From assembly GCA_032718475.1 (NCBI GenBank), contig JAUCBJ010008715.1:16025-80024 (forward strand): a stretch of 64,000 nt of DNA. Direction: 5' to 3'. Below are positions 19,958-62,269 of the stretch, piece after piece; the first letter of the stretch is position 1, and the number at the start of each line of letters is the position of its first letter. The DNA is from Nemertoderma westbladi (taxonomy: Eukaryota; Animalia; Xenacoelomorpha). A program made the translations under genes and the position numbers. The notes under the pieces are model-generated. The model had not been told where the DNA came from. It was given only the letters and a program-made list of their open reading frames with translations, and did not search any database.

Positions 19958-20686
<729 letters not shown>

Positions 20687-29307: not shown

Positions 29308-29671
29308 GTATCTCAAAAGTACAGAACAAGTTCATAGGTGTTATGTTATAGCCCTAACACAGCACTCAACAGAAACAAATTGCAGCCAATCAACTAATTG
29401 GATTCTCAATTCCAGATCAATGGCTGTTCTACAAGTAAAGATATCCTGGCGGGAACATGGAAATTGAGTTTCACATTTCAATTTCTGAGATTGGGGTAAG
29501 GTAGGGTTGAAGTAAAATATTAACTTCATTTTATGTTTCGCATTCTACACAGTTTGACAGTAAGTTTTTGATTTTCTTTGATTGCTTTCTTGTTCTTACA
29601 ATCCTTTATTAATTTTCTGTATACATTGCTTTAAACGTTTAAAGGTTGACTTCGGTTATTGCTCGATCTTA

Positions 29672-31321
29672 ATGATGGACGATCGTAATGAGATGATAGC
29701 GGGTTATTTTGATTTAGGCTTACGCTATAGTGAAATAGCATCGATGTTATATACCAATCATAACATTATCATTAGTGTGCGACAAATAAAACGAATTTTA
29801 CATCATTTACGTTTGAGAAGAAGGAATAATTACTCGACGTCAAATGAAGTAATTAATTTTATTTCAAATGAAATAGCCGGATCGGGATGTCTCCATGGTT
29901 ACCGCATGATGCATACAAAGTGTTTGTTAGCCGGTCTTAGAGTCCGGAAAGAGGACGTCCGTCAGATTCTGCGCGACCTAGATCCCGAAGCAACAGAGTG
30001 GCGTTCGACAAGGCGTTTGCGCCGTCGCCAGTATTACGCCAGGGGGCCGAATTTCATTTGGCACCTTGATGGTTATGACAAGTTGAAGCCATATGGAATT
30101 TGTATCAGCGGTTGCATTGACGGTTTTTCGAGAAAAGGTAAAAATTACTAAATGTGACCAAAGCACTTGTTATCAAAAAACCGTTTATAAATTGGCCATG
30201 CAAGCCATATTATATTAGAAGACCGTTAGGGCTTATTGCTGCCAAAAAAACGTCTGTATGTGCACAATTTACTCATAAATTACCTAGGGAACCCGTAGCC
30301 CAGTTGGTAGAGCGCTGTATCTGTAATAGTAGGGACCCGAGATCGATCCTTGGCAGTTCTAAATTATGTTTTTTATAGGTGGCTATGAGAAGCCCTGACG
30401 GTCTTCTTATAGCCGGCTTGCTGGCATTCTAGTTATTAATGTTTGAAAAATTATTGTTATAATAATTTTTGTTGACAAAAACCGCCTCCATTGATATGGA
30501 GGCGGTTGCGTTTTCTTTTCTAGCGATTTACTTTCAACATAAATTTTAACATTTTAAATTTAACATTTAAAATTTTAGCATAAATTTGGTCACTTTAAAG
30601 TGATTTTGACCCGAAAGTCATCTGGTTGAACTCGTATAACACAAATAATGATTCCAAAATAATTGGTGGTTATTTCCTAGAAGCAGTGTCCAAATACAAT
30701 GGCTGTCCACGAATAGTTAGGGGTGATTTTGGAACTGAGAACGTGCGTGTGAAGGACTTCCAGAGATTATTAAGACGCGATGGTGATGATATACCACAAC
30801 ATAGCTATATTGATGGGGCAAGTACTGCCAACCAACGAATCGAATCTTGGTGGGGGTCACTTAGAAGGCAGTGCACAGAGTATTGGATGGACTTCTTTAA
30901 ATCTTTCCAAGATTCTGGCCTATTTAATGGCAGTGACCTACACAAGGAAATTATTAGATTTTGTTTCATGGCGATAATCCAGGATGAACTAGATAAAGTA
31001 GCGAGTATGTGGAATACACATAGAATTAGGCCATCGCGGAATTTGAATGTACCTTCTGGTAAACCCAATAATATGTTTCGATTCCCAGAACTTTGGGGCA
31101 AAACAAATCAATTATGTCAAGTTATCGCAGATGACATAGACATTTGCCGAGAAGAAGCATTATTCCGGACCGCTACTGGTCATTGTGATAAAGATATATA
31201 CGAGTTATGCATAGAATTTATGCAAAGATTTAGAATACAGCCCGTAGTTACAACGGAACAAGCTAAAAACCTTTATATTATATTGATCCCTGAGATGGAA
31301 AGGTTAATTATTGGACACTAG
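29672..31321 (+). CDS. IS3/IS481-like DDE transposase; exons 29672-30137, 30618-31321
   Basis: HTH region, GYRMMH, RRLRRRQYYARGPNFIWHLDGYDKLKPYGICISGCIDGFSRK|VIWL...PRIVRGDFGTEN...STANQRIESWW; GT-AG intron restores frame. Confidence 0.88.
30287..30360 (+). other. tRNA-like (pseudo) sequence inside transposase intron
   Basis: gaacccgtagcccagttggtagagcg...gagatcgatcc...gttc: good A box, degenerate B box. Confidence 0.45.
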
Positions 31322-37520: not shown

Positions 37521-40500
37521 TTGTTGTGCCCATGGGGTATTGCCCTTGCTGTGCCCATGGGGTACTGCCCTTGTTGTGCCCATGGGGTACTGCCCTGGTT
37601 GTGCCCATGGGGTACTGCCTTTGTTGTGTCCATGGGGTACTGCCCTTCTTGTTGTGCCCATGGGGTACTGTCCTTGTTGTGCCCATGTGGTACTGCCTTT
37701 GTTGTGCCCATGGGTACTGCCCTTCTTGTTGTACCCATGGGGTACTGTCCTTTTTGTGCCCATGGGGTACTGCCCTTCTTGTTGTGCCCATGGGGTGCAG
37801 CCCTTCTTGTTCTGCCCATGGGGTACTGCTCTTGTTGTGCCCATGGGGTACTGCCCTTCTTGTTGTGCCCATGGGGTACTGTCCTTGTTGTGCCCATGGG
37901 GTACTGCCCTTCTTGTTGTGCCCATGGGGTACTGTCCTTGTTGTGCCCATGGGGTACTGCCCTTGTTGTGCCCATAGGGTACTGTCCTTGTTTTGCCCAT
38001 GGGGTACTGCCCTTCTTGTTGTGCCCATGGGGTACTGTCCTTGTTGTGCCCATGGCGTACTGCCCTTCTTGTTGTGCCCATGGGGTACTGTCCTTGTTGT
38101 GCCCATGGGGTATTGGCCTTGCTGTGCCCATGGGGTATTGCCCTTGCTGTGCCCATGGGGTACTGCCCTTGTTGTGCCCATGGGGTACTGCCCTGGTTGT
38201 GCCCATGGGGTACTGCCTTTGTTGTGCCCATGGGGTACTGCCCTTCTTGTTGTGCCCATGGGGTACTGTCCTTGTTGTGCCCATGGGGTACTGCCCTTCT
38301 TGTTGTGCCCATGGGGTACTGTCCTTGTTGTGCCCATGGGGTACTGCCCTTCTTGTTGTGCCCATGGGGTACTGTCCTTGTTGTGCCCATGGGGTATTGG
38401 CCTTGCTGTGCCCATGGGGTATTGCCCTTGCTGTTCCCTGTGGGGTACTGCCCTTGTTGTGCCCATGGGGTACTGCCCTGGTTGTGCCCATGGGGTACTG
38501 CCTTTGTTGTGCCCATGGGGTACTGCCCTTCTTGTTGTGCCCATGGGGTACTGTCCTTGTTGTGCCCATGGGGTACTGCCCTTGTTGTGCCCATGTGGTA
38601 CTGCCTTTGTTGTGCCCATGGGTACTGCCCTTCTTGTTGTACCCATGGGGTACTGTCCTTGTTGTGCCCATGGGGTACTGCCCTTCTTGTTGTGCCCATG
38701 GGGTGCAGCCCTTCTTGTTCTGCCCATGAGGTACTGCTCTTGTTGTGCCCATGGGGTACTGCACTTGTTGTACCCATGGGGTATTGTCCTTGTTGTGCTC
38801 ATGGGGTACTGCCCTTGTTGTGCCCATAGGGTACTGTCCTTGTTTTGCCCATGGGGTACTGCCCTTGTTGTGCCTATGGGGTACTGCCCTTGCTGTGCCC
38901 ATGGGGTACTGCAATTGTTGTGCCCATGGGGTACTGCAATTGTTGTGTTCATGGGGTACTGCCATTGTTGTGCCCATGGGGTACAGCCATTGTTGTGCCC
39001 ATGGGGTACTGCCTTTGTTTTGTCCATGGGGTACTGCCCTTGTTGTGCCCATGGGGAACTGCCTTTGTTTTGCCCATGGGGTGTCTTCCTTGTTGTACCC
39101 ATGGGGTACTGCTCTTGTTGTGCCCATGGGGTACTGCACTTGTTGTACCCATGGGGTATTGTCCTTGTTGTGCTCATGGGGTACTGCCCTTGTTGTGCCA
39201 ATGGGGTACTGCCCTTGCTGTGCCCATGGGGTACTGCAATTGTTGTGCCCATGGGGTACTGCCTTTGTTTTGTCCATGGGGTACTGTCCTTGTTGTGCCC
39301 ATGGGGTACTGCCCTTCTTGTTGTGCCCATGGGGTGCAGCCCTTCTTGTTCTGCCCATGAGGTACTGCTCTTGTTGTGCCCATGGGGTACTGCACTTGTT
39401 GTACCCATGGGGTATTGTCCTTGTTGTGCTCATGGGGTACTGCCCTTGTTGTGCCAATGGGGTACTGCCCTTGTTGTGCCCATGGAGTACTGCCCTTGTT
39501 GTGCCCATAGGGTACTGTCCTTGTTTTGCCCATGGGGTACTGCCCTTGTTGTGCCTATGGGGTACTGCCCTTGCTGTGCCCATGGGGTACTGCAATTGTT
39601 GTGCCCATGGGGTACTGCAATTGTTGTGTTCATGGGGTACTGCCATTGTTGTGCCCATGGGGTACAGCCATTGTTGTGCCCATGGGGTACTGCCTTTGTT
39701 TTGTCCATGGGGTACTGCCCTTGTTGTGCCCATGGGGAACTGCCTTTGTTTTGCCCATGGGGTACCTTCCTTGTTGTACCCATGGGGTACTGCTCTTGTT
39801 GTGCCCATGGGGTACTGCACTTGTTGTACCCATGGGGTATTGTCCTTGTTGTGCTCATGGGGTACTGCCCTTGTTGTGCCAATGGGGTACTGCCCTTGTT
39901 GTGCCCATGGAGTACTGCCCTTGTTGTGCCCATAGGGTACTGTCCTTGTTTTGCCCATGGGGTACTGCCCTTGTTGTGCCAATGGGGTACTGCCCTTGTT
40001 GTGCCCATGGGGTACTGCCCTTGTTGTGCCCATGGGGAACTGCCTTTGTTTTGCCCATGGGGTACCTTCCTTGTTGTACTCATGGGGTACTGCCCTTGTT
40101 GTGCCCATGGGGTACTGCTCTTGTTGTGCCCATGGGGTACTGCACTTGTTGTACCCATGGGGTATTGTCCTTGTTGTGCTCATGGGGTACTGCCCTTGTT
40201 GTGCCAATGGGGTACTGCCCTTGTTGTGCCTATGGAGTACTGCCCTTGTTGTGCCCATAGGGTACTGTCCTTGTTTTGCCCATGGGGTACTGCCCTTGTT
40301 GTGCCTATGGGGTACTGCCCTTGCTGTGCCCATGGGGTACTGCAATTGTTGTGCCCATGGGGTACTGCAATTGTTGTGTTCATGGGGTACTGCCATTGTT
40401 GTGCCCATGGGGTACAGCCATTGTTGTACCCATGGGGTACTGCCTTTGTTTTGTCCATGGGGTACTGCCCTTGTTGTGCCCATGGGGTACTGCCATGGTT

Positions 40501-41945
40501 GTGCCCATGGGGTACTGCCTTTGTTTTGCCCATGGGGTACCTCCCTTGTTGTAGCCATGGGGTACTGCCCTTGTTGTGCCCATGGGGAACTGCCTTTGTT
40601 TTGCCCATGGGGTACTGCCCTTGTTGTGCCCATGGGGTACTGCCATTGTTGTGCCCATGGGGTACTGCCTTTGTTTTGCCCATGGGGTACTGCCCTTGTT
40701 GTGCCCATGGGGTACTGCCATTGTTGTGCCCATGGGGTACTGCCTTTGTTTTGCCCATGGGGTACTGCCCTTGTTGTGCCCATGGGGTACTGCCATTGTT
40801 GTGCCCATGGGGTACTGCCTTTGTTTTGCCCATGGGGTACCTCCCTTGTTGTACCCATGGGGTACTGCCCTTGTTGTGCCCATGGGGAACTGCCTTTGTT
40901 TTGCCCATGGGGTACTGCCATTGTTGTGCCCATGGGGTACTGCCCTTGTTGTGCCCATGGGGTACTGCCATTGTTGTGCCCATGGGGTACTGCCTTTGTT
41001 TTGCCCATGGGGAACCTCCCTTGTTGTAGCCATGGGGTACTGCCCTTGTTGTGCCCATGGGGAACTGCCTTTGTTTTGCCCATGGGGTACTGCCCTTGTT
41101 GTGCCCATGGGGTACTGCCCTTGTTGTGCCCATGGGGTACTGCCCTTGTTGTGCCCATGGGGTACTGCCCTTGCTGTGCCCATGGGGTACTGCAATTGTT
41201 GTGCCCATGGGGAACTGCCTTTGTTTTGCCAATGGGGTACTGCCCTTGTTGTGCCCATGGGGTACTGCCATTGTTGTGCCCATGGGGTACTGCCCTTGTT
41301 GTGCCCATGGGGTACTGCCCTTGTTGTGCCCATGGGGAACTGCCTTTGTTTTGCCCATGGGGTTCCTTCCTTGTTGTACCCATGGGGTACTGCCCTTGTT
41401 GTGCCCATGGGGTACTGCCTTTGTTTTGCCCATGGAGTACCTCCCTTGTTGTAGCCATGGGGTACTGCCCTTGTTGTGCCCATGGGGAACTGCCTTTGTT
41501 TTGCCCATGGGGTACTGCCCTTGTTGTGCCCATGGGGTACTGCCCTTGTTGTGCCCATGGGGTACTGCCATTGTTGTGCCCATGGGGAACTGCCTTTGTT
41601 TTGCCCATGGGGTACTGCCCTTGTTGTGCCCATGGGGTACTGCCCTTGTTGTGCCCATGGGGTACTGCCCTTGTTGTGCCCATGGGGTACTGCCCTTGTT
41701 GAGCCCATGGGGTACTGCCATTGTTGTGCCCATGGGGAACTGCCTTTGTTTTGCCCATGGGGTACTGCCCTTGTTTTGCCCCTGGGTTACTACCCTTGTT
41801 GTGCCCATGGGGTACTGCCTTTGTTTTGCCCATGGGGTACTGCCCTTGTTTTGCCCATGGGGTACTGCCCTTGTTGTGCCCATGGGGTACTGCCTTTGTT
41901 TTGCCCATGGGGTACTGCCCTTGTTGTGCCCATTGGGAATTGTCC
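37521..41945. repeat. 4.4-kb satellite of 25-bp (and 28-bp variant) units
   Basis: ttgttgtgcccatggggtactgccc with palindromic cccatggg core. Confidence 0.97.
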
Positions 41946-42319
41946 TTGATTAATCATCGATATTCTTAAGGGGGACATCGGAGGAGGTTCTAGCTTCTAG
42001 ATTTTCAGACTTTTTTTATATATTTAATTTTTGAGGATTGAAAACGACTAAGTGAGATCTTTTAGTTCAGTCATTGATGTCTGACATTCGACCGCTCTGC
42101 GCTTTTAAATAAATAGGTAACCATTTTCAAAGACCATTTTCTACTTATTACAATAACTGACCAATCATCTCCCAAAGGATAAACTTTTTAAATTTTTGAA
42201 AAAATGATCTTCTTTTGCGGTTTTGACACCTAGATTAATTTTCGGCGCTGTTTCCGAAAATGGCAAAATATATCGAAATTTTTTGGCGTTTGATGGTCTT
42301 TTTTGGTGTCAAATGTGGT

Positions 42320-44141
42320 TATAGAATTATATTCTCTAAATGCCGTGGATTTTCAAAATTTTATTTTATTCGAATTAACTTTGTAAAAGATTGCTTTGAG
42401 TCCTCATTTGTATTTGTTATATCTATTGTACGCCTATTGGTCAAGTGGTTCAGTAGCTCAGTCGGTAGAGCGTTGGAAATTATATGTGTAGTAGGTATTG
42501 AGTTCGAATCCTAGTAAGTGCGAATTATTTTTTGTACAGAATTTCAACTCATTTAAATTGACCGCTACGAATTAATTGCATTTGTCTGTACCAATGAGAC
42601 TGTAGTTATTTGATTGTAACCAATGTCGTGCAAGTTATATATTAGCTGGACCAATAGCTATCTTTAAAAACCTGTTAGAACCTATAGAACAATCGAGAAT
42701 TTTCTCGATTGATTGCAGCACAAATTTGCTATATAAAGGTGCGATTTGTTCATTAGTTATCTCAGTGCAATACCGTTTATTTCAGATTACATTGTACATA
42801 TTATTATAATCTTCTGTAATAAAGTCAGAATTATCGCTAATCTGCCTTTTCTATCTGTTTTACCATGATTCACTACGGTGAACAAACCTAAGGGACAGGA
42901 TGGCCGGCTAGAGATCGGGCCGCAGCAATGAACGGGAACATCGGGGGAATGTAGACAAGAGACAACCCGCAATACCATCTTGAGTTATTCGCCCATCGCC
43001 TGAAAGGTTAGACAGCGTTCGACGCCTTGCTACCTAAGTGTAAGACCAAAAGATCAAAGGTAGAAGTAGTGGCACGCTGTGAGCCTAAAATTACATCTTA
43101 GGGACTGTACTGTCTTGATTCAGGAAAACCCACAGTAGACCTTCATATTCCTACGGGGAGAGGAGAGAGAGAGCAGGCAGATACTAGTACGCAGATAGGA
43201 CGTAGGCACACCGGTACGAAGCATACAAATTGGTAGGGTGCAGCAAACTGTACGCCTAACTCTTGCTAAGTGCAGGTGCGTTTGCGACTATTTGCAGTAC
43301 AACGGTGTCCATTGCATTAGAACTTGTAGGCTAGGAGGGTTGCTGTGTTTTCACCTGAATTGGGATTGTGCCGTTCAGGCGGTAGGGCAGTTTACAGCTA
43401 GGCGCAAATAAATTGAGGCTATTAGGGATACTAACATCTACCGTGTCCCCGCCAACGCCCTAATAGGAAGTTACCCAGCCTACCTAGGTGACTAAAATTC
43501 TAGATAGGACGCCAGGATAGCTATTAGTAACTGTACGCCTACAGTAGTAAACTAACACATCTCTTCTTAGTATCAGGGACCTGGTACCTAAAATTGCCGA
43601 ATTCTGGGCGTAGCATTAACCTTATGCCTGAATTTGAGTCCTGGAAATACGCAAGAGGGGAAGGAACCTTATCATTCGTGAGTATTGGACCTACAAGTTA
43701 CAAAATTAGAATATTCGTAAAATGCACACCGTACCCAGTAATTATATATGTGAAGGAGCAAAACTGTTTTGACCGTTCAGAATTAACACGCGCGTTAGAA
43801 ATTATTTACACCTCAAAATATATAAAATTAACTTTTGTCTGCCTCTGTACCTAGCTAGCGTCCCTTCGCCCAACCATATAAATCACACCACGGCAAAGTA
43901 TACGAGCCCCTTAGTCCGTCAGTGAGTCAGCCTGATTTTAGGATTCGCTGCGCGGGATTTTGTTTTATCGAAGTTTGTCTGCTCGTAGACTGTTTTCTGC
44001 CTCACCGGTTATAAGAGATCGATACTGCAATATATTCGCTTACTTAGAGTTTACTGTTTTGGTGAGAAGGTCGGATTTATGATTTGATTCACAAACTTTA
44101 CAGTAGGATATTGCAGGTATTGTTACCGTCTCTTCCATTTA
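42320..44141 (+). repeat. 5' LTR (1822 bp)
   Basis: Matches 59867-61729 except a 41-bp indel and a few substitutions. Confidence 0.95.
42590..42768 (+). promoter_or_regulatory. LTR Pol II promoter: three CCAAT boxes, TATA box, TCAGT initiator
   Basis: accaat at ~42590, 42619, 42650; ctatataaagg ~42729; tcagt ~42762, about 30 nt after the TATA box. Confidence 0.6.
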
Positions 44142-45000
44142 GTAGGAATATGTTCTACTGAACTACGGTTCGGTAGGACTAAAATTATTTGAAAATTTTG
44201 TATTTTGAGGTAAAAGTTTGTATTTGATTAGCTAAGTGCTAATTTTTTGAAATAAAATTTGATTTGAACCGCGTGTAAAATATTTTGGAATTGAATACCG
44301 GTGTTTAAAAGGGTTTAAATACCATATTGTACCGGTACAAAATTTTCGTAAAGTAAAACCTAACTCTTTTGTTTTTCAGGATTCAGAACTCATTTCTAGA
44401 CTGTAACGGGAGCAAGACCGTGTTTAGCAAGTTTGGGAGATAGATAACCAACAACTTTGGTTGGGAAAATCGCGTTTCGTCCGCAACGCTGGAAACGGAA
44501 AGGTTCACGTTCGGTTTGTATCTGGGAATCTGTTTTTCTGGAGAATTATTGGAGTGGGTGAGTTCGAAAGGTTGCATAAATAAGTTAGGCATTACCGTAT
44601 TAGTTAAAATTATTGTGGGTTCCACTGTCTCAAGTATTTATGCATTCCGTATGATTTCTTTGTTCATTGCTGAATTAGTCCGTATTATTGTATTTAATTT
44701 ACTTTTTGATAACGCATATCGTTATCCGATTTATTTGTTATAAAATTGGCCGCTAGGCTAATTTTATTATATACTTATTCCGTGACATTTATTTGCTGTA
44801 AAATTGGCCGTTTAGGCTAATTTTATCCATCTGCTATAAAATCGGCCGGTAGGCTAATTTTATATGACTGTAATTAGTACCGTTTAGATATAAATACAGT
44901 AAACTCGATACTTTGACACTCACTTTACTTGACTTACAACTACCAAAATGAGTGACAAACAAGACTATACGAAGAATACACAAACCGACTATGACTCATG

Positions 45001-45367
45001 CTGTGACGGGATCATCCGGAGATGAACCCGATTTATCCTGTTTTAGTTCATGCGTCCCCGCCGTGTGAAAGAGTGTAAGTTGAGGTTACTGTTGTTCGTT
45101 ATATTGTGATCTTGAGACGTGATATAGATATAGATATAGATTGATGTTATACACTGACGTTCACAGGTTGACGGGATGACGGTAACTAAAATCCCGTCAA
45201 CCTGTGAACGTCAGTGTATAACATCAATCTATATCTATATCTATATCACGTCTCAAGATCACAATATAACGAACAACAGTAACCTCAACTTACACTCTTT
45301 CACACGGCGGGGACGCGTGAACTAAAACAGGATAAATCGGGTTCATCTCCGGATGATCCCGTCACAG
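45001..45367. repeat. 177-bp near-perfect inverted repeat with 13-nt spacer
   Basis: 45001-45177 is the reverse complement of 45191-45367 (one mismatch seen). Confidence 0.95.
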
Positions 45368-45903
45368 TAACTAAAATCCCGGTACTTCCCTAATTGTAAC
45401 TTACTGTACCACCAGTAACACTGAGATAACTGAGGTAATATGATTACTGCTTACTGGTTATATCGCACGGTGGCCTTATTGCTACTCAATCGGTGCCAGC
45501 CCCCCTCTGATTGGTTGCTACCCTTGTTGGCGCCCTTTGAGGTGTTCCCGTTCACCCCAGCTATTCTCTCCCTTGTCAGGATACTAACCCCTGACCCTTA
45601 TTGTGTGCTTCTCCTTCCCATTCTGTTGGGGAGACACGAGTTGGTTTGGGACCTAATCTCGTGTCCCCCAATGTTGCTTATTGGCTTAACTTTGTGGAGT
45701 ATTGGCGGGATTGATTCGCTAACACATGCGACGGAGATAAGTCAGCAGCGGAAGAACAACAGGGGAAGACTCGCGAGCCTACCGAACCTACACCGTGTGC
45801 GTCACCAGTACATCCAACGGGAGTACCGGATGCCGTAGTACGAGGCGACGGCAGGACCGAGGACTTTCTAACTGTTCCGCAACCTAGATACAGGGAAACG
45901 GAC

Positions 45904-48900
45904 ATGGTAAGTTCAGCAGGAAGCCAGGAGAGTGTGGTTAGAAGCGTCGGCGGATACATGGCGCATATAACCAGGAGTATTGGAGAAGGCCAACGCATAT
46001 TAAACGAGTTGACCACTCCGATGTCTCGATTCGAGTTCTACACCCTCCAGGTTAGAGTACAAAATAGAGTACACAAGTCCGTAGATAACCTAATTGGTCT
46101 ACAAGATCTAGCTAGACAGAGACAGGACATGGATACTCAACTTAGAATCCTCGAGAAACTAATGATCGCTAGAGAGAAACTGATTCAGTTTAAGTCGACG
46201 ATTAGACAGATACAACAGGAACAAGCGGACCAGTTGTTAGGTGAGTCAGTTTCGGACGAATTATTACAACCCGAGGAAGAACAGGAACTGTACCGACTGG
46301 ATGGACAATTGAAACACCTGACGGACCACTTACGCATGTGCGGCGAAGACGTCGGCGATTTGGAAACCGTGCCGGAATATACGAGGGAAACTTCATTCGC
46401 ACAAATCGAATCGGCACCGTGAATACTAAATCAATCGCTGGTAAGTATTCGTAGCGAAATCTGCGAGGGAAGTATGGTCACGTCAGAAGTTGCTCGACAA
46501 CAGCAAGAATTCTACCAACAACAACGAGAGATCGAGGAACAAGCTCAACTTCTAGTGATGCAGGCAGCAGTAGAGGAAGAGAAGCTACGCGTTGCAAATG
46601 TAGCGAGAATCTCTCATCTACAGGAACAAGCTGAATTAGAAGCAGCTGAAGTAGAAAGGTTAGAGGTAGACATCGCCCAACAAACGGCAGCGGTTGATTT
46701 AGCGCAACGAAACGCAGCGGTCGAGTTAGAGCGACAGATGGCAGCGGCTGATTTGGAGCGACGAAACGCAGCGGCTGATTTAGAGCGACGAAATGCAGCG
46801 GCTGATTTAGAGCGACGAAACGCAGCAGCTGATTTAGAGCGACGAAACGCAGCGGCGGAATTAGAGTGAGAAAGATTAGTTTCGGAAGCACGGGCCGAAA
46901 TGAAAACACGGCAAATAAAAGCTCAATCCGCTATACGACAAGCGGAGTTTGAGGCGCAACGACAACAAACGGAACAACGAGAGAAGACAGCTAAACTTCA
47001 TTTCGAACTCGAGAAGAAGGCGAGAGAAGTAGCCGAAGCCAAGGAAAATCTGGATCTTCTAGCCCGCGATAGATCAATGAGATCTCGTGACGGACATGAT
47101 TTGGACCAGTTAGAGGTAAGACATCGCCTAATTCAGGAACGGAAGAAGGAAGGAAGCGTAGGAGCACCCGGACGGGAACGACAATTAGTAAAAGACTTGT
47201 GTCAACGATTCCCACAAGTAACTCCTATGTTTGCACCAATTATGACAAAGAAACCTGTTTCGATTGCGGGTAGTAGTGATATTTCTCCTATCCATGGTGC
47301 GACGGAACACAGGTTTGTTATTCCGGACAAGTTTACACCGCCAAGAGCAACGTCGTCGCCTATTCCAAAAGTCAAGGTAAGTAACCCGCCGATTACGGAT
47401 CGTAGTAGTTTGTTGACTGGACCTGCACTACTGACGACTAAACAGGTGAGTCCACCGTCGACACCTAAACCCGTTACACACTACGCTTACCCAATGACGT
47501 TTCGACCTACAAGGCCGGTAGATTCAAATGCTGTCATTCGCCCACCGGTTCAGTTTACATCGCAATCTACGACTTCGAGGAAGACTTGTGAGCCTACCGA
47601 ACAACGGAGAACAGTGGATACGCGACCGTTCAATCAGTTTACATCGCAATCTACGACTTCGAGGAAGACTTGTGAGCCTACCGAACAACGGAGAACAGTG
47701 AATACGCGACCGTTCAATCAGTTTACATCGCAATCTACAACTTCGAGGAAGACTTGTGAGCCTACCGAACAACGGAGAACAGTGGATACGCGACCGTTCA
47801 ATCAGTTTACATCGCAATCTACGACTTCGAGGAAGACTTGTGAGCCTACCGAACAACGGAGATCAGTGGACGATGTTCCAAAGCGAAACGTTAGAATTCG
47901 TACGACACAACGGACGCGAGCACGTCGACCACCATATCCAGATGATAGTAGTACTTCAAGCGAATCGGATTACCCGAAACGCGAGGTATTTAGAACAGGG
48001 GCGGCCGATGAATATAAACGCGAGCGTTCAGACAACTCCTTTGTAGACAATCCTCCACAGAATACACCAACACCGAAGGCGTTACAACCAACGGACGCAA
48101 TCAGTACACAACAGTTCGCCGACATCCTGCGACCAGTTGTTAACAAGTTGGCTCAGATCGAGGAGCGTCTGGAGGAAGTTCAAACCGATAGTTCGAGGAA
48201 CACTGAATTCGAACACAATAGACACCCGAAGGAACCACAAGGACCGGTACCTTCAAAACACCCATCGTATCAGGGAAAAGCGCCAAGAAGGGATATCAAC
48301 CAGTGTACCAACCAAGGACGCGAAACTCTGAACGTTGCCGAGGAGATAGCGAAATTCGCAGCCAGACAGGGATTGCCGGTACAACAACCACCGAAGTTTT
48401 CCGGTAGTTCAAAACACTGGCACACATTCGTAGACTATATCGAATCTCAGATCGCCGTGTGCGCCTGTACATCACGGGAGAAGTTTAATTACCTGCTTCA
48501 AACGTTGTCAGGAGAACCTAAACGTTTGGCGGAGACCTTCGTTGGTGTACCGGACGCTTTCGAACTAGCGTACGATCGTTTAACTTCGATATATGGAGGT
48601 ACAGTCAGCATGGCCAGGTCAGTAATAGAGGAACTCTGTAAGGGAGGGGCTATCACTAAACCCGTCGACTTATTAAAACTGGCCGACGAGATAAAGAATG
48701 CTATCACTACTTTAAGATCCATTGGACAACTTGACTACGGGAATACCCCTACAGTCCTATTAAAGATCATAGGACGACTCCACCATCGACTTCGTCGGGA
48801 GTGGAGAAAGATCGAATACCAGCGAGAAGAGCGGGGTGGATTCTTAAAACTGGAGGATGTGTACCTTTTAATATCCAGGGAGGCAGTAGTAGAAACTCGA

Positions 48901-51900
48901 TCTAACTACACTGACCAGCACATCGTAGCAGAAGGGATCACCTTGCCATCCTCCAACCGACAAAAACCTCAGACAACATCCACCAAGACGGCCACTTACG
49001 CCACACCGACGGAATCACGACAATTCTCGGACGGTAGTAGGGTATCTGCGCCCATTGGGACAAAACAGACGAGACAACAACTCAGTACCGACTTCAGCGG
49101 CTGCCAATACTGCGAGCATTTAGGCAAGCGGTATATCGGTCACAAGTTGCGAGGTTGTCGACAGTTTCGCGAGTTAAACTCGGAAGAACGACGGCTGCAG
49201 ATACGGCCATTGGACTCTTGTTGGCGGTGTACGCGACATGGACACGTCCGTAAAGATTGCCCAAATACCGACACTTGTCCATCCTGTGGACGCAACCACG
49301 ACGGTCTGCTCCACACAGACAGCCACACACCGACAAAACGCTTCGCCAGGGAACACCCGGAAGCAGCAGCGAGATGTGATGCGGCCTACAGAAAACGAGA
49401 ATCGAAAACGACTCCGACCTTCATGACCCATATTGAGGATTGCTTCTCAGAACAACCCGGATCGTCGGACGAAGAGTCAGAAGACGACGACGTATATTCG
49501 GATGGAGATGAACAGCCATCGATCGCGCTTCTGACTACTGACCAACTAAAGGGATTTAGTGTAATTCCGATTAAGATTACTGGCACAAAGGGGAGTAAGA
49601 GAATCTACGCTATTCTAGATTCAGCCTCATCTCACAGTTACGTGGATGAAAAGATAGCTGATGTAGTGACGGATCTCAGACAAGGTAAGCGCGTCAGTTA
49701 TACCGTAAGTAGTATGCACGGACAACGTGCAATACCAGTGACACGAGTTAAGTTAAACTTAGACTCTCTTCTTCCAAAATCGCAACACAGCGAGAGGGAG
49801 AGGTCTTTGTTACCCTTCAAGGATTTGACCTTTGCGGCCACCAAAGACTTTAGTAACCTACTAGGTCCGGTCCCAGAACAATCCTTGGAGGACCGTAAGT
49901 ATTTCAGACACCTTGGTGTACCCGAATGTCCTGTCAATTATAGATCGGTAGCCATGCTGATCGGGACAGACCAATTCAACCTACATCAGGTGTGGGAAAC
50001 CAGACCATCGGCAGTCATAGCGGGAAACGCATACGCCTGCAGAACGCCGATAGGGTGGTATACTCGAGCGCCTGTGCGCACACTAGACGTAAGTGACGAG
50101 GAAGACGATGTACAAAGTACATGTAGTTTATTAACTACAAATTCAATTCATTCCTTCTCACACGACGTGAACCATACTACACTACAGTCGACAAAACATG
50201 ACAGACGTGTGACTAGTATGATAAGTCACAAGGAGCAGCTAACCCACCAGGTGAGTTTAGAACTTGGGGAGAAGACGAGTCAGCTAGAGATTCCATCGAC
50301 GACAGATGATAACGCCGGAAGGCTTGCGAGTCTACCTACCCCAATAACCTCAGCAATACCCGTCGATATCGATAATGACGCGTTGAGAAATCATCAATTG
50401 GAACAAGCTGTATTGGACAAAGAATTAACGGAGAAGACTATCAGGTGGTTAGAACAAGATACAGCTGAACCTGGTAGCTACGAACCTTGTATGTCGGAAC
50501 AGGAGAAACAATCTTTGAGGATCATGGAAGATACTATCCGCCAGACGGAGGACGGACATTATGAGGTAGGGATGTTATGGCGTAGCCAAAGTCCTAAACT
50601 TATAAATAACTACCCACTAGCTTTAAGACGTCTACACTCAATACGGCAACGTCTATTAAAGGACGAGAAAGCCCATCTGCAGTACAACACTCAGATGGAG
50701 ACGTATTTGACTAAGGGATACGCTATCCGAATGACTAACCCAGAGATAGTGACTAACCAGACATACTACCTGCCACATCACTACGTGAGACACCCCGACA
50801 AACCAGATAAAGTACGCGTAGTCAATGACTGTGCGGCTCTGTTTGAGGGAATGTCCCTCAATAGCGAGTTGATGGATGGACCAAACATGAATAATTATCT
50901 TATGGGGGTGATTATGCGCTTCCGTCAGCGTCAAGTAGCTTTTACTTGTGACGTTGAAGCGATGTTTCACCAAGTGAGAGCGTTAGAGCGAGACAGAGAC
51001 AGTTTGCGGTTCCTCTGGTACCCGGAAGGAGACTTAAGTCTACCACCGGCGACTTACCAAATGCAAGTTCGCGTTTTCGGTGCCAGGGACAGCCCAAACT
51101 GCACGATGTACGCCCTAAAACAAGCCGCTAGGGATCAGAAACACCTGTATGACCCAGAGATAATTAGGATTGTGGAACGTGACTTCTACGTCGACGACGG
51201 ATTACAGAGTTGCAACACAGTAGAACGTGCTACAACAGTAGCACATCAATTACGGGACTGCTTAGCGGGCGGAGGTTTTAACCTCACCAAATTCGCCTCA
51301 AACAGTGCCGAATTAGTAGACTCATTCGGAACGACTGAGCGTGGAGGTGGTGACATAGACCTAGAGTTCGAACCACTACCAACGACCAAGGTGTTGGGGC
51401 TCTTTTGGGACCCAAACACAGACAACTTTCGAGTGAAAGTGAGACTGGACAGTCAAGAAAACACACTGACAAAGAGATCATGCTTGTCAAAATTGAGCCG
51501 ATTGTTCGATCCATTAGGATTCATCAGTCCAATTATACTGCAAGCCCGCATTTATATGCGCAGTATTTGGAAGGATGGACTGACATGGGACGAGCCGATC
51601 TCATCAGACCAAGTGGACTTATGGAAGACCTGGGAGGCGGAATTATCTTCGCTAGAGGATTATTCCATACCCAGAGTCTACTTTCCATTACAAACAACAT
51701 TTCCTGACAACTTGGAATTACACTGTTTTTCTGACGCCAGTGACAACGGTTTTGGTGTGGCAGCGTACTTGCGCAGACAAGTAGACTCAGCAGAATTCGA
51801 TGTTTCGCTCATTACTTCTAAGGCAAAAACAATGCCTACTAAGTATATGACGACACCACGAGCTGAGCTACAAGCCGCAACCCTGTCAACCACCATCGTG

Positions 51901-54638
51901 AACCTTATACAGACAGAACTACAGTCAAGTTTACAGATATTTTATTGGACTGACGCGACGTTGGTTTTATTTTACATAAACAACGACACACTTGAATTCA
52001 AGACATTCGTAGCTAACCGTCGTGCAGAAATTCTAGACTGTTCAATAAAAGAGGATTGGCGACATTGTCCCGGACCACAAAACCCAGCTGATATTGCGTC
52101 GTGAGGAATGATGCCTGAGGAATTCTGTAAACCGGAAAACAAAGAATTTTGGCAACACGGACCCCAATTCTTGCAGAAATCGATGCAAGATTGGCCACCG
52201 TTATACGACAACAAGTCTAACACCATCCCTAAGGACGCCGAAATCAAGAAACCAAAAAAGGGGAAGGCAAAGAAAAAGACGACGGCGACAAAACTCAAGA
52301 AAAAACCGAAGGCGAAATGGAAAGCGATAACTTCAAAGGTCAAGAGAGGAAGACTTGCGAGCCTTTCTACACCAGACATATCGCCAGACGGTCAAACAGA
52401 CACGTTACTAGACAGCCAACCAGACATTTTGCCAGACATATCACAAAATGTTCTACCAGACACTAGTAACATACTGACAAATAGTAAAGCCGCAGTTTCT
52501 CTATTGGAGCGGCCTTCTATTGACAAACAACCAGATACGTTACCAGACGTATTGCCAGACACGTTGCTAGACGGTCAACCAGACGTTTTGCCAGACACGT
52601 CACTAGATATTTCGCCAGATGTTCCGCGAAACATTTTACCAGACATGTCACAAAATGTTCTACCAGACATTAGTAATGTATTGACAAATAGTGAAGCCGC
52701 AGTTTCCCTATTGGAGCGGCCTTGTATTGACAAACTACCAATTTTGACACACTTGAGCAACCATAAGCATGGTGAAACCTCATGTATTACAGATGTGGGT
52801 AGTACCTACGCTAATGTAAATACAGGTGTTACTCTGCGCTCAAGAGACATACCAAACTTGCAACCTATGGTGAAACCTGGGATTAATATCGGCAGAAAAA
52901 TAAGTTTACCGAAACCCACTGACCCCATAGAGTTCAAACCACCATTAACGATCAACTTACAAAGTACCGACAATCAAGGTAAGAAGACAAAGAAGGACAA
53001 ATTACTTGTAGACCGGACGGATCAATAGTCAACAAGGGAATACCTACCGGCGGACCCGTGGGCCCTTCTAGTAATTCAAAACCTTCCAAAATCTCCATTG
53101 ACTTACCTGATGACGTCACAAATACTTACGTCGACCGTATTGTAAACCTAACAGACTCTTGGACAAACGTTTGCCGAAAATTAGCGTGGATTGTACGTTT
53201 TGTACAATACGTTAAAGGCAAACGTGACTTTACACGTCGACTTACATTGGCTGAGATTGACAGGTGTGAAATTAAATTAATTCGCCATTACCAACTGCGA
53301 TATTTCGCGCGCGAATTCACATCTATAAATCAAGGTCAACCAATCAAGTCGTCACCAATACTGAGTTGGAGTCCGATTATTTATAATGGCTTAATTTGTC
53401 ATAAATCTCGGCTTCAAAACATTGACTTTAACACAAACTTTAGATACCCAATAATAATACCACAACATCACGAACTACAACGTGCAATGATACTGGACGC
53501 ACATTTACATCTGAAACACGCTGGAAGACACCACTGTCTTTCCTACTTACGTACAAGATTTGTATTAATTAGACCCAGTAAAGCGTTAAGTTCAGTGACA
53601 CGTACGTGTATTATTTGTAAAAAGGTACATTCTAGAATAGGTACCCAAGAAATGAGTGAACTTCCACAAGCACGACTTCAAGCATTCAGACCACCTTTTA
53701 CAGAGACTGGAATTGATTGCTTTGGTCCCATACATACGAAACGTGGACGTATACTAGTAAAACGCTGGGGACTGATTTTCACATGTATGTCCAGTAGGGC
53801 AGTTCATATTGAACGTGTGATGGATCTTTCCACCAACGCGTTTATACTAGCATTGCGGCGATTTATCGCTAGACGCGGACTAGTAAAATGCTTGTACTCA
53901 GACCAAGGGACAAACTTTGTTGGTGCTCGAAATGAGATTGCTAGAGCCTTTAAGAAATTAGATAATGATCAAATCTCGAACGAACTACAACCTCACAAGA
54001 TTGTTTGGAAGTTTAATCCTCCAGATAGTCCATGGAGAGGTGGAGTCTGGGAGAGATTGATTAGATCTATCAAAACAGCCATGGCAAAGGTCATTCCAGT
54101 AAACCACATATTGACAGACGACCAACTGACAACACTGTTTGTTGAAATCGAGGCAATACTAAATACTAGACCAATAGTATTAGTACCCGATGACAAACAA
54201 TCTCAGTTCGCTTTGACACCGGCACACCTGCTAATGCAGGCACCGACAACTTTGACGCCTATTTCTATTCCAATAGAAAGCGATAGCTACGGTAGAAAAG
54301 CGTGGAAAATCACGCAACTACTGGCTAACAAATTCTGGGAAATATGGCAAAACCATTATTTGCCCTCTATTTCTGCCAGAACAACTTGGTATAATAACAC
54401 CCGCGCATTAAAGCCGGGAGATCACGTGCTGTTAGCGGAAGTGAATCTAAAAAGACGCTTCTGGATAACAGGTGTAATTTTAGCCACACATCCATCTATG
54501 GATGGAGTGACAAGAACTGTAACGGTACGGACAATTGACGGTCGTACAGTAGACAGACCGACTCAACGTCTCGTACTTCTTGAAGAGACTCGTAACGAGT
54601 CTGGAGACTACAAATCTCCACCTAATACTAGTAAATAA
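45904..54638 (+). pseudogene. BEL gag-pol polyprotein, interrupted by in-frame TGA stops (46420, 46867, 52102) and a frameshift near 53030
   Basis: Coiled coil; gag PKFSG..W..F; three Cys/His knuckles; protease ILDSAS; RT YLPHH..KVRVVND, CDVEAMFHQV, FGARDSP, FYVDD; RNase H FSDAS, PRAELQAA, WTDAT, NPADIAS*G; integrase H..H..CIIC, GIDCFGP, SDQGTNF, PWRGGVWERLI. Confidence 0.93.
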
Positions 54639-55300
54639 TTAGGAGTTTACAAATAGATTTCCACGTACCTGTACACCGTAGTAAGGACAGCGGTAGAATT
54701 CCATTGTCTTTATATGTGAACATTGAGGGTAGTACCCTTATGTGTCACATAGGAGCGGGATTTGTAGGTATAAGAAATGGAATTCTACTTGGAACTCACA
54801 ATATTGAGACATTTTCGAAATTTTAGACAATCCATTTGGATTTGAAAATTTTTTAAAATTTTCTCCAGTGAATAGATTTCAGGGTACAGTCGGGTGGAAC
54901 TTAAAATTAGAGAAACAAGAGAGGAAGACTTGCGAGCCTTTCTTAAAATTTTAATTAAATTTTACACGGTCTTGTTTCAATAAGTTACGTCAATAAATAG
55001 ACTCCCCTATATTTATTACTAATTCTTGATTGCTTATTTTCTGATAATAGTTTGGGATCAAAAAGTGAGTATTTTAGACTCACAGCCAGTTTAGCCCAAA
55101 ATTCGTTTTTATTTCGGCAAAAAATTTTAGATAAGAAGCAGCGTGTCATTAAAGAAACCCTAGATCTTAGGCTATGGGTAGGAGGTTAGAGCGTTGTCGA
55201 GCCCAAAGGGCAGACGAAACTCTCACGTCTCCTCACAACTAACTACAAACTCTGTTGTATTCCCTCTAGTAGTAATGATTATGTAACTACACCCCTAATT

Positions 55301-57091
55301 ATGGAGAAAGGGATACAAGGAGAGCCGAGATGGGGATATGATATCCAAGAGGAGGCAGCAGCGCCATTCGAAAGATTTGGAGCCAAGGACTATACTATAT
55401 TCGGTATAAAAGAATTATCGGAAAGTACAGCGAAACTCGCGAGAACTAAATATGACTCGAACGTATTAAAGAGAAGGCAAAACGCATTAAACGAAAGAAT
55501 CGAAAGTTTGCGCCAAACCTTCAACGAACTTTACCCGTACGACGCTTTGTGTGATACGGGAGACATTAGCGAAGACCCCGATACTGAAATTAGTCGTTTG
55601 TATCATACCATGCAATACCTGAAGGCGCACGAACCTATGCCCGCGGTACGCGATGAATTCGATGGAATGCATCTTTACAGACGAACTCGAGGGGACGATA
55701 GAGAAACCAAGGAAGCATTTTCAGTTTATAAACTTTATTATCAATGCGGTTCTTGTATGCGCGAACAACGAAATGCGATTCCGATGCGTTTGAATAAGGA
55801 AAATCCCGAACCGATATTGGCGAGGTGTTCGAACCATCAACAACTACGCTACCAGGAAGGAGGGTATCCTTTATCGAATCCATATCATTCGTTTGCTATG
55901 ACCGGACCAAAGGCGGGAGAAACTGTCATTTACCCACCTAAGGTTGTTGAACCCGATGTATTTGAACTTACGCTGGACGAGGCGAATCAGTCAACCCGCG
56001 AAAAGAAAGAAGCTCTTAGCCTATACAGAGCCTACAAGGCTTTCGAGAAAGGTGAAATGGAAGAATGGGGCGGAAGACTCGCGAGCCTACCTTGCCATTG
56101 GACGTCACACGATCAAACTCCAGCTAAGGAGATGACACCGGAAGTTTTCGAGAGCATAAACTTTGCTCAAAACGTTATTCAGAGACTACAGATTGCATCC
56201 CCGGAGAGGACAAGAGAAATGCAACCGTATAGTACTTCAACTACGAAACCATTGAGTACGACACTCAATTTCCCTATTAGTATACCAGTCCGACAGGATA
56301 CGACGTACGAAATACCCATCGTGGATCATCCAGAAATCATTTCGAACTTGGAGTTTCTTCCTGCAGTTGTTTTTAGCGATATGAGTAAGATATATGATTT
56401 ACGTAGACATATTACTCAAAAGGTCGTGTACAACGTTCCACCTCATATTCAAGATTTCAAGGAACTGGATAGAGCTGGTGCCGATATAGCTCCGAGTAAT
56501 TTGAAAGGATATTTAACCAAGACGATTCGTTTATGGATTGGAACCGGAACCTTCGAGTCGGATACAGATATTGCCGCAGATTGGCGAGGTAAGGTTATTC
56601 GTTTCGAAGATGATAAGGATATAGAGAAGATTTGGCAACCTTCGGAAGAATTGTTGGATGAATGGAATAGGACGTTTAGGTCGTTTCAGGAAAATGGTTA
56701 CATATTTTACGACAACGAGGGCAGCAGTCATCAGCAGAGTTTGACTTCTAAGACTATACAAATTAGAGCGGCGGACGGAGTCCTGCACGTTTTCAGTAGA
56801 CAGAGGAGCGACAAACGAATGCCGATACCTCCAGCGAATACAAAGCGACACCATCTTATCACCGATATAGTAAAGAAGATAGACCAAGCTTGTAATATCG
56901 ACGCTAGAATGCTACCGAAGATGGTAAGAAACATGATTTTAGATAAAACTGTTGTAAAGATTGGATCAGGAGTAAGGGAGGATTTAATTAGCGACTTCGC
57001 CGGCATGACGGACAGCGATGACCGACTACCGACACCTTACGTCGACACTCGACCTCTTATTTTGTGGTCTATAGAACAGGTATATTTTTAG
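55301..57091 (+). CDS. BEL accessory ORF3, part 1; C-terminal part resembles a DEDDy (WRN/RNase D-like) 3'-5' exonuclease
   Basis: YIFYDNEG (ExoI-like), TIQIR, LPKMVRNMILDKTVVKIGSGVREDL (ExoII-like), YVDT; lies between pol and the 3' LTR. Confidence 0.6.
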   Translation: MEKGIQGEPRWGYDIQEEAAAPFERFGAKDYTIFGIKELSESTAKLARTKYDSNVLKRRQNALNERIESLRQTFNELYPYDALCDTGDISEDPDTEISRLYHTMQYLKAHEPMPAVRDEFDGMHLYRRTRGDDRETKEAFSVYKLYYQCGSCMREQRNAIPMRLNKENPEPILARCSNHQQLRYQEGGYPLSNPYHSFAMTGPKAGETVIYPPKVVEPDVFELTLDEANQSTREKKEALSLYRAYKAFEKGEMEEWGGRLASLPCHWTSHDQTPAKEMTPEVFESINFAQNVIQRLQIASPERTREMQPYSTSTTKPLSTTLNFPISIPVRQDTTYEIPIVDHPEIISNLEFLPAVVFSDMSKIYDLRRHITQKVVYNVPPHIQDFKELDRAGADIAPSNLKGYLTKTIRLWIGTGTFESDTDIAADWRGKVIRFEDDKDIEKIWQPSEELLDEWNRTFRSFQENGYIFYDNEGSSHQQSLTSKTIQIRAADGVLHVFSRQRSDKRMPIPPANTKRHHLITDIVKKIDQACNIDARMLPKMVRNMILDKTVVKIGSGVREDLISDFAGMTDSDDRLPTPYVDTRPLILWSIEQVYF

Positions 57092-57212
57092 TGAGTACAA
57101 TACTCAGAAGACTGGAACTGGATACATTTCCTACCTGTTATTCAATTGGGATTATAAGGAAAATAAGAGAAACAAGTATATTGAAACTTATGGAGAAGGT
57201 GATACTCCAGAT

Positions 57213-59027
57213 ATGAGTGAGTTTGAATCACAGCTTAAATGGAGAGGATGCGTGTATTGGGCTATTACGTCACCTCCAAGAGCGGTCTTACAATATTATT
57301 TAGCAATAGAGTCGTCAGTGAATGTTTGCCTAATCGCCGACATTGTGTCTCGGACTCTCAAAAGACATCCACTTTGTCTCGGAGAAGATCATACGTTCTA
57401 CATGGAAGGGAGAATTCGTACCGACGTGTTTAGACGATTCCTTGAACCCTTCTACAACTCCGACGCTCAGTGTAATGCCTTTACTCGAGCAGGATTTAGT
57501 ATATTTCGAGACGTGTATCTTCGCTGTGCGGGATCTCTTATCGAAAGACCATCTATGTTTACATTGTTACCCTATGAAGGAGAACGTATCGTGGAGATTA
57601 CGGAAGAATCACGGCAGACGCGCGCGCCTATCGGTCACCTCGGTGATGATTTCGAAGTAACTACTACGATCGCTGACGATCCTTTAGAGGAACTTCTTGA
57701 GATAGAAAGGAACCTCCCGAAGAAATCTCAGACGGAGATTCGACAACTTGAAGCAACAGATGCTATAGTTTGTATACAACCTTCAGAAACCTACCAACCC
57801 ATAGACCCAGATGATTACGATTATAGTGTGGGAGGAAGCGCTCGACCGATTGGAGATCTTATATACGAACGAGTGTGGTACCCTGCCAATACGATGTGTA
57901 GTAAATGTGGCGTCGCTGGACATCATATGACAAAGTGCAGTGGAAAGCACATTACTACGACTCAGCTAATCTGTGGATGGTGTGGGGATCAAGGGTCTCA
58001 TACCTTTTATACTTGCTGGAGATTTATGGCTCAATGTACTTATTGCAATATAAAAGGACATCGAGCATCTGAATGCCAACTAAGAGACATACCTTATGAA
58101 CACGAATCTGTAAAACTCGTGAGGAAGTTATTTGATGAGTGGGAAGATTTAGCCGACGAACATGTATCGGCACAAAGAAGACGGTTTCCGATGAGAGCGC
58201 ATCTCGGATTTTGGGCGGTAAATCCCCAGACGATGATGTCGGAAGGATATATCTCCGCTATGCCCCAATATGACGAACTTATCGAGGTAGTCGATATTTT
58301 GCCCCACGACAGCGGATTTCGAGTAGTGCGCGAGTATCTACTACAGATTCACCCAGATAATAAAAACACGTGGAATTTTCAGAAAGTCGTTAATCGCATT
58401 ACGTATGGTGAATTCGATCGTTTCCGAATTGAAAAACGGAATAAAGGAGCTTGGTTAACCGTCGCATGGGCGTACCGAGCCGCGTTTTACCATAAACGTA
58501 TACGAGCGAGCGTATTCGAGGAAGAGGAGGTCCTAGAGGCGACGAATATACCAGCCACCCCGGTTGCGCCGTCTGCACGTCACCCTCGCGAGGACGGACA
58601 GGGTAGGATCATACGGGTCCAGAAAGTGGGCCAAAAATTAAAGAAAATTATTAATATAGAAGAACGCAAGGGAGTTGAGCCGACCATTCGAATTACTCGG
58701 GATACGGTATCGCTTCCTAGAGAACCAATAGGAGGATCGGGACATACACCAGCTGATCAACAGGGGGCGCAAGCTACTCTTGGGTCTGCATCGTCCGCTT
58801 CTCGCGCGTTCCCAGACGTTCTACCAACTGTAGTGACAACTGATCGGTCACGAGGAATCGGTCGAGGTTTTGGGATGCTAAATAGACGAATTTGCGAGGA
58901 AATGGTCGCACCGTCTCTCAATGTCCAAACGAAACCAGTGACTCGCCCCACGAGTCCCATATCGCGAGCAAAGTCACCTGTGCGCAGTTTTCGAGGACGC
59001 GGCAGGGCTCGATCCACTAAGCGATAA
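57213..59027 (+). CDS. BEL accessory ORF3, part 2 (probably a frameshifted continuation); three CCHC zinc knuckles, basic tail
   Basis: Frame is open upstream to ~57075, overlapping the end of part 1; CSKCGVAGHHMTKC, CGWCGDQGSHTFYTC, CTYCNIKGHRASEC. Confidence 0.65.
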   Translation: MSEFESQLKWRGCVYWAITSPPRAVLQYYLAIESSVNVCLIADIVSRTLKRHPLCLGEDHTFYMEGRIRTDVFRRFLEPFYNSDAQCNAFTRAGFSIFRDVYLRCAGSLIERPSMFTLLPYEGERIVEITEESRQTRAPIGHLGDDFEVTTTIADDPLEELLEIERNLPKKSQTEIRQLEATDAIVCIQPSETYQPIDPDDYDYSVGGSARPIGDLIYERVWYPANTMCSKCGVAGHHMTKCSGKHITTTQLICGWCGDQGSHTFYTCWRFMAQCTYCNIKGHRASECQLRDIPYEHESVKLVRKLFDEWEDLADEHVSAQRRRFPMRAHLGFWAVNPQTMMSEGYISAMPQYDELIEVVDILPHDSGFRVVREYLLQIHPDNKNTWNFQKVVNRITYGEFDRFRIEKRNKGAWLTVAWAYRAAFYHKRIRASVFEEEEVLEATNIPATPVAPSARHPREDGQGRIIRVQKVGQKLKKIINIEERKGVEPTIRITRDTVSLPREPIGGSGHTPADQQGAQATLGSASSASRAFPDVLPTVVTTDRSRGIGRGFGMLNRRICEEMVAPSLNVQTKPVTRPTSPISRAKSPVRSFRGRGRARSTKR

Positions 59028-61729: not shown

Positions 61730-62269
61730 GTGGTGCTTCACCAAAATTACAAATTTTGTGTGATAATTACAAACGTTGCCATAACTCGAGAAAGTTGCCA
61801 CTTATCGGAAAACTGATATCAGATTCGGATTCATCATAAAAGTTTACATCGGAAAACACATAAAAAATAATGTGATGAAAAAGACTGGGGGTGAACCCCC
61901 CCCCCCCCCCCCCCTTAAGTTGATTAATTTAATCGCATTAACTATAAATTATCAACAGAAGGAAGTTACTACTGAATAGTGTTGCAACGGGATCGGGATC
62001 CGCAATTTTCGGGATTCTGGGATCTCTTTTTAATTTTATTCAGGCCATACTCATCCAAAACTTAAAATAGCTATCTACCCTGCCCTCTTTATAGGAGTAG
62101 AACAAAATGCCTATATAAAAATAGCCGCTGACTTTCTACTTTTTTCAAATAGTTCACAGACGTAGTTTATTTCCCACGTACGTATTTATTATAATTTCTA
62201 CACCATTTTTAAAATATCTACAGCAGTCTGACTGAATCGCTGCCACATCTCTATAATATTATAATCGGC

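Follow-up and report, generated by a model that had tools for sequence, protein, structure and literature searches.

A BEL/Pao retrotransposon with a primer-binding site complementary to its own LTR: a candidate for self-priming in Nemertoderma westbladi

Priming by a tRNA is the textbook rule for BEL/Pao retrotransposons. A stretch of 64 kb of Nemertoderma westbladi DNA (the window) contains a BEL/Pao LTR element of 19.4 kb (42320-61729) whose 5' LTR is followed by a non-tRNA primer-binding site (PBS), directly adjoining the LTR at 44142-44152. How, then, is reverse transcription of this element primed? The original prediction, made from the sequence of the window, was that the element produces its own primer. 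The ICTV profile describes BEL/Pao elements as primed by a host tRNA at an 18-nt PBS, puts their LTRs at 0.2-1.2 kb and their genomes at 4.2-10 kb, and calls their replication 'poorly understood' (PMC8742986). All coordinates are those of the window, and features of the element are on its forward strand.

The limits of the element were established by aligning its two LTRs. Together with a GTGGT target-site duplication (42315-42319 and 61730-61734), this alignment fixes where the 5' LTR ends, at 44141, with no TGG after it, as had been proposed. The 5' LTR (42320-44141, 1822 nt) has non-canonical TA..TA ends, and it differs from the 3' LTR (59867-61729, 1863 nt) by 2 substitutions and one 41-nt indel. 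The gag-pol region (45715-54638, from Pfam and ORFs) is of BEL/Pao type and broken: TGA stops interrupt the frame at 46420, 46867 and 52102, and the frame changes near 52983-53028. Judged from these features, the element is young though the copy is defective. The few LTR differences imply either that the element replicated recently with its present junction or that a PBS has been lost very cleanly since. Because the copy is defective, it shows cis signals and not activity.

The assignment to BEL was confirmed by Pfam matches to Peptidase_A17, DUF1759 (gag) and DUF5641. Domains follow the order PR-RT-RH-IN expected for BEL/Pao, and pol contains YVDD and DAS. The reverse transcriptase (RT) is most similar to BEL/Pao proteins, the 40 matches listed carrying PF05380, PF03564 or PF00078. 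Two LTRs and a 5-bp target duplication are likewise as in BEL/Pao, with ends TA..TA and not TG..CA. Integrase spacing is D(61)D(49)E; Sinbad and Saci-1 have DD(49)E and BEL has DD(53)E, according to the text of PMC554778. The element thus shares with Sinbad/Sailor-like BEL/Pao elements the Gag-PR-RT-RH-IN order, the A17, DUF1759 and DUF5641 domains, YVDD, DAS, the 5-bp duplication and DD(49)E. It departs from the ICTV description (PMC8742986) by the absence of the 18-nt PBS for a tRNA 3' end, its 1.8-kb LTRs with TA..TA ends, its length of 19.4 kb and two extra ORFs. The missing tRNA PBS does not remove it from BEL/Pao, since that site is descriptive and the family is set by Pol.

The two extra long ORFs lie between integrase and the 3' LTR (55190-59027). 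Neither the first (55190-57091) nor the second (57075-59027) matched a Pfam family over cut-off; the second contains a weak zinc knuckle, and Atlas leads for the first were weak and 3'-5' exonuclease-like (0.79, all below 0.8). A short purine-rich tract adjoining the 3' LTR, GGAGCGG (59860-59866), is the candidate polypurine tract (PPT), for which the relatives described below have GGGGCCGG plus 2 nt. With LTR ends TA..TA (42320 and 44141), the element has no spacer to either PPT (59860-59867) or PBS. In the relatives, LTRs run TG..CA and are set off from the PPT by 2 nt and from the PBS by 1-4 nt; one control family (assembly G071) has TG..TA. These different ends and spacers may reflect different integrase end processing. 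Between leader and gag lies a near-perfect palindrome of 367 nt (45001-45367, 97%), from which a 180-bp RNA hairpin is possible; Rfam microRNA matches within it were far under the cut-offs.

Outside the element, the window contains a single-ORF calcyphosin-like gene (20054-20686) with at most 68% identity to any database protein, and the host seems to be without close sequenced relatives. Two ORFs at 29582-31321 with an integrase-core (rva_4) match are the remnant of a second mobile element. A large array of 25-bp tandem repeats (37900-42000) ends about 300 nt before the element.

The 11 nt of the PBS are the exact reverse complement of a segment within each LTR, at 43144-43154 in the 5' copy and 60691-60701 in the 3' copy, at the coordinates originally given. 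Neither the PBS nor its complement occurs again in the window. The complementary segment, the candidate self-primer, overlaps an initiator-like TCATATT (43143-43149). The chance of such a match had been put at 4e-4, which underestimates it about 4- to 50-fold, since CCTAC/GTAGG is about 3-fold enriched in the LTR. Dinucleotide shuffles reached 11 nt in 4 of 5000 cases at offset 0 and in 11 of 5000 at offsets 0-3. When 2-, 3-, 4- or 5-mers were preserved, 6, 5, 3 and 42 of 2000 shuffles respectively did so, and an equal match was found at 57 of 6858 control positions within the window. For this element alone, the 11-nt match thus has a chance of 0.15-2%: it is unlikely to have arisen by chance, and is suggestive rather than decisive. 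The pentamer enrichment, the 5-mer-preserving shuffles and the defective state of the copy are what favors reading the match as chance, or as a by-product of repeated GTAGG/CCTAC, in a copy whose true PBS was lost.

A self-encoded tRNA primer was also considered and rejected: ARAGORN found no tRNA, no Rfam family scored over cut-off in 42200-46000, and a tRNA-like segment in U3 contains no complement to the PBS. That segment, present in both LTRs (42454-42511 and 60001-60058), consists of an A-box/B-box pair followed by a T run. It was not called a tRNA by ARAGORN or Rfam, and a similar pair occurs outside the element at 30296; it is possibly a SINE head or a Pol III promoter.

Relatives of the element came from a scan of genome contigs, in which two BEL elements were first found; these contigs had been binned into bacterial assemblies and are evidently animal DNA. 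More elements were obtained from the same and related assemblies. Four bacterial assemblies (G001, G002, G026 and G071) contain contigs with whole BEL/Pao elements and animal-type flanks, and the 15 matches in G071 are a sign of heavy host contamination. A wide search of about 1380 genome slots, which overlap, yielded BEL contigs over cut-off in only 4 assemblies. Scans of viral contigs gave no relatives, and the metagenome scan gave one weak 1.3-kb match without LTRs.

Five relatives of the same clade could be tested for a self-complementary junction. They form a small sample, from two assemblies (G001 and G002) and about three independent families. Over RT-RH, L002, L003, L008 and L009 are 38-40% identical to the window element; L052 is a sister of L002 represented by gag alone. 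Because the 3' LTRs of L002 and L052 are cut, their LTR ends were deduced. In all five (5/5), 11 nt complement the element's own LTR, and the letters differ. L003 has the complement contiguously, 4 nt after the LTR. L002, L008, L009 and L052 have only 8 contiguous nt, and reach 11 across a predicted splice joint within the LTR, which brings together 3 nt of exon 1 and 8 nt of exon 2. The joint consists of a GTRAGT donor and a pyrimidine-rich YAG acceptor, both inside the LTR, and the predicted introns measure 1022 nt (L002), 451 nt (L008), 338 nt (L009) and 695 nt (L052). This pattern was first seen in L002, and the other three were then examined as predictions. No joint giving a longer primer (12-14 nt) was found in the window, nor was a longer primer-forming joint found in L003, and neither element has an intron at its primer.

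L008 and L009 form a compensatory pair. They differ at two primer positions, the exon-1 letters changing from TAA to CAC, and the PBS is altered to match, from TTA to GTG. Covariation between the bases after the LTR and their LTR complement, which the original prediction had named as a check in related families, is thus kept in all five relatives, with a compensatory change in one pair. We then applied a uniform rule (11 nt, offsets 0-5, contiguous or across GTRAG..YAG) to LTRs shuffled 1000 times: 6 passed for the window element, 1 for L003, 4 for L002, 5 for L008 and 0 for L009. Each PBS matches its own LTR only (cross tests 0/65). Altogether, four different 11-mers occur in four lineages, each starting 0-4 nt from the LTR end.

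Elements of the G071 assembly served as controls. All nine that contain an RT have a TGG site and a self-complement of at most 6 nt. They are 31-33% identical to the window element and fall into three groups in the tree. Their TGG site is the complement of tRNA-Tyr(GUA), as given in a single supplement row of PMC13524379. In an RT tree of 53 rows, built without a Gypsy or Copia outgroup, the self-complementary set and the tRNA set separate with support 100/100. Alongside the self-complementary elements, the tree places proteins whose names refer to corals, a sea star and a ribbon worm, for which protein sequences alone were covered. The window element sits on a long branch, with at most 56% identity in the RT core. 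Integrase spacing is D(61)D(49)E in L002, L003 and L009 and D(65)D(53)E in the controls L026 and L036, the other loci giving no pattern row. The counts of 5/5 and 9/9 leave out loci without an LTR pair (L001, L027, L035, L037, L038 and L045; L037 belongs to the self-complementary clade and is too short to count), those with an ambiguous junction (L042/L053 and L044), those below cut-off (L039 and L040), and L041 and L043, which have a TGG site and no RT.

The complement is therefore retained in different letters in the relatives and absent from the tRNA-primed clade (5/5 against 0/9), which makes self-priming likely. We consider it highly probable, on this comparative sequence evidence, that the element self-primes in some form. 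The same counts argue against a chance match with loss of the true PBS, as does the near identity of the two LTRs, which would require either recent replication with the present junction or very clean loss; we regard this reading as very improbable. The pairing could also be real and selected for another job (RNA folding, dimerization, packaging or translation control), with a host tRNA fragment or other small RNA as the primer. There are precedents: half-tRNA priming exists in Copia lineages, according to the text of PMC6317226, and in fungal GalEa elements the PBS is replaced by a hairpin of unknown role, as described in PMC5445492, a strong hairpin being also present beside the PBS of this element. 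That hairpin is not seen in the relatives, however, and the four 11-mers each match their own LTR exactly where a primer must sit, so that a host RNA would need to track each change. Neither the PBS of the window element nor its complement appears in the tRNA 12-mer table of PMC13524379, which covers mature 3' ends only. Thus a role other than self-priming seems improbable.

If the element primes itself, where does the 11-nt primer come from? Folding of the RNA around the two segments gave two prominent structures. The first is a hairpin of 11-12 bp directly 3' of the PBS (44153-44178), with a C(UACG)G loop and a z of -5.45; none of 200 shuffles was as stable. The second is a predicted long stem-loop (43131-43347; z -5.73 for the domain 43125-43355), whose basal stem joins the primer segment to 43321-43347. 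When 5826 windows of the element were compared as partners for 43130-43160, the best two were 43319-43350 (-28.9 kcal/mol) and the PBS region (-26.6), the mean being -9.0. In the fold model, the stem 43131-43347 can thus mask the primer, and competes with the primer:PBS duplex.

Copies of a motif of about 20 nt (core AGACTYGYGAGCCT), with at most 2 mismatches, are scattered over 13 distinct sites within 45767-59555, every copy being inside the element and none in the remainder of the window. Since it is read in different frames, it would act at the DNA or RNA level. Five copies extend into CCTACCGAAC, which is complementary to the UACG hairpin in its 3' arm (44168-44177).

The original prediction had added a second helix between TCTACTG (44154-44160) and CAGTAGA (43133-43139). 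The complementarity is there, but the structure is not supported: the pair probability is at most 0.01 in all three folds that contain both arms. The 44153-44178 segment is predicted to form the hairpin instead, CAGTAGA belongs to the masking stem as well, and 8.7% of LTR windows would extend the duplex equally. Considered element by element, a second helix upstream of the primer never reached significance (9-33% of windows as good). The purine run after the primer (43155-43173) had also been noted; a required role for it found no support, none of the relatives having such a run after its primer.

Self-priming is established for Tf1, where RNase H cuts between bases 11 and 12 (text of PMC7175516). 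It has been inferred for the Tf1/sushi group, Tj1 and Tcn1 (PMC7175516, PMC4600332 and PMC10085805, in the sections concerned), and predicted for the Copia element TAR, as stated in PMC6317226. Like this element, Tf1/Tf2 of Schizosaccharomyces pombe, Tj1 and the Tf1/sushi group have no tRNA site and an 11-nt PBS complementary to their own LTR; the primer length of 11 is the same as in Tf1, flanking helices are possible, and RNase H cleavage offers a natural route to a free primer. Tf1/sushi elements are Ty3/gypsy chromoviruses, whereas this element belongs to BEL/Pao, with no chromodomain match in Pfam, and hence is not a member. By analogy, it likely works as the Tf1/sushi group does. The difference lies in the primer, which is the first 11 nt of the mRNA in Tf1, probably internal in this element, and predicted to arise only after splicing in four relatives.

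Two readings of the promoter were obtained from motif scans. The first combines TATATAAA (TATA, 42730) and TCAGT (42762), a candidate promoter over 42730-42766 whose predicted start near 42764 is that of the original prediction, with AATAAA at 42818-42823, upstream of the primer segment. The second combines TCATATT at 43143 with AATAAA at 43407-43412, 252 nt downstream of the primer end. According to the second reading, transcription would start at or just before the 11-mer (43131-43145), as in Tf1, and the first bases would fold onto the PBS in the three-duplex 'pretzel' (defined in the text of PMC10085805), from which RNase H would free them. Several features are consistent with such a start. 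The modeled primer:PBS pair probability is 0.88-1.0 for RNA 5' ends at 43090-43145. Both pretzel flanks can form, 43156-43163 of the purine run with the U5 end at 44129-44136 (2% of LTR windows as good) and 44101-44108 with 44153-44160; these flanks compete with the UACG hairpin and are unsupported in the relatives. The primer of L003 is preceded, at about 28 nt, by an AT-rich box. However, the motif scan found no TATA 25-35 nt upstream of 43144, and bases upstream of the 11-mer are taken up in the basal stem of the 43131-43347 domain. None of the four relatives tested showed the downstream helix (48-99% of windows as good), and in the four spliced relatives the primer crosses a joint, with TATA about 200-240 nt upstream. 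A start at the primer, as in Tf1, is therefore rather unlikely in our view.

We lean, without great confidence, towards an internal primer in this element, released from the masking stem in an RNA that starts upstream. This form, an internal primer as the original prediction had it, fits the anatomy of the relatives: in L002, L008 and L009 a TATA precedes the primer or joint by 199-240 nt, in L052 by about 200-240 nt, and AATAAA follows the primer by 0-8 nt in the spliced relatives. Their primer would thus be internal and need a 3' cut. The relatives' anatomy need not carry over, given that the window element has no primer intron, a long branch, no spacer and TA..TA ends. The fold model itself speaks against the internal form. 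The primer:PBS pair probability is 0.21 for a 5' end at 43075, 0.84 at 43000 and 0-0.17 at 42900 or further upstream, where the primer is masked, so that a switch or chaperone must be invoked. Moreover, AATAAA at 42818, upstream of the primer, would end the 3' LTR RNA too early, which is unexplained under any cis model.

With an internal primer, priming could proceed as follows. Transcription would start upstream of the 11-mer (TATA 42730, start near 42764). The 11-mer would then leave its local masking stem (43131-43347) and pair with 44142-44152. Next, as in Tf1, RNase H of the element would cleave the RNA where the duplex ends on its 3' side, following C43154 or the equivalent C60701 of the 3' LTR, and RT would extend the cut end from the last LTR base. 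The primer donor could be either LTR copy, on the same or another molecule. For strand transfer, the RNA would have to end downstream of the primer (AATAAA 43407), or a second RNA molecule would be needed. In the spliced relatives, the LTR intron must survive replication, so the 5' LTR would be spliced and the 3' LTR not, or the reverse. Under the reverse option, the primer would come from spliced, polyadenylated LTR RNA and the template would be unspliced. Splicing of the last intron is coupled with polyadenylation, and this option (spliced 3' LTR RNA) fits better.

Splice-like motifs also occur in the window element. Past the primer, the long remaining LTR segment has strong donor-like sites at 43678 and 43922; an acceptor-like site (44129-44142) spans the LTR end, and an acceptor with a branch motif lies in the leader (44360-44379). 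Judging by these motifs, splicing there could take the PBS out of the mRNA.

Self-priming has been predicted elsewhere, for Tcn1 (Ty3/gypsy) and TAR, Houba as well as Osr-1 (Ty1/copia), from an LTR complement of at least 10 nt situated 0-5 nt after the LTR (text of PMC6317226), and the junction of this element agrees with that rule. Those are plant Gypsy and Copia lineages, for which the text of PMC6317226 reports no splice-built primers. The fungal GalEa elements resemble this element in that they lack a tRNA PBS and carry a hairpin, the Conserved Hairpin Site, beside the 5' LTR. The GalEa site has no LTR complement, according to the text of PMC5445492, whereas the hairpin described here follows a complementary PBS and is not conserved in the relatives. 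Our literature search found no report of self-priming in BEL/Pao; most subscription papers, the original Suzu/Saci-1 descriptions, Repbase notes and figures were outside its scope, and absence from print is not proven. A term search of the available text of three BEL/Pao papers (PMC554778, PMC3118150 and PMC6238403) gave no mention of PBS, tRNA or priming, and the portions covered of PMC3601003, PMC13524379, PMC6934838, PMC4558846, PMC8220671, PMC5445492 and PMC5443660 contain none of BEL/Pao self-priming.

A joint reading, which we offer as possible rather than probable, would be that a whole branch of BEL/Pao in aquatic animals, Sinbad-like, gave up tRNA priming and obtains its primer by cutting within its own LTR RNA. 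Host splicing would, in many families, build the primer just before the poly(A) signal, and the spliced LTR RNA, either the genome 3' end or a short LTR-only transcript, would be a self-made tRNA substitute for the unspliced template. The element described here would be an intron-less derivative that gates its primer by a two-state RNA switch, the stem 43131-43347 against the PBS duplex.

If a branch of BEL/Pao does self-prime, Tf1-like priming would reach a third LTR superfamily, and a primer that is internal or built by splicing would be a new way of making one. Such elements would escape control by the host tRNA supply and by 3' tRNA fragments, and self-priming would explain why PBS finders fail on them. 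L008 and L009, as a natural compensatory pair, make the mechanism directly testable.
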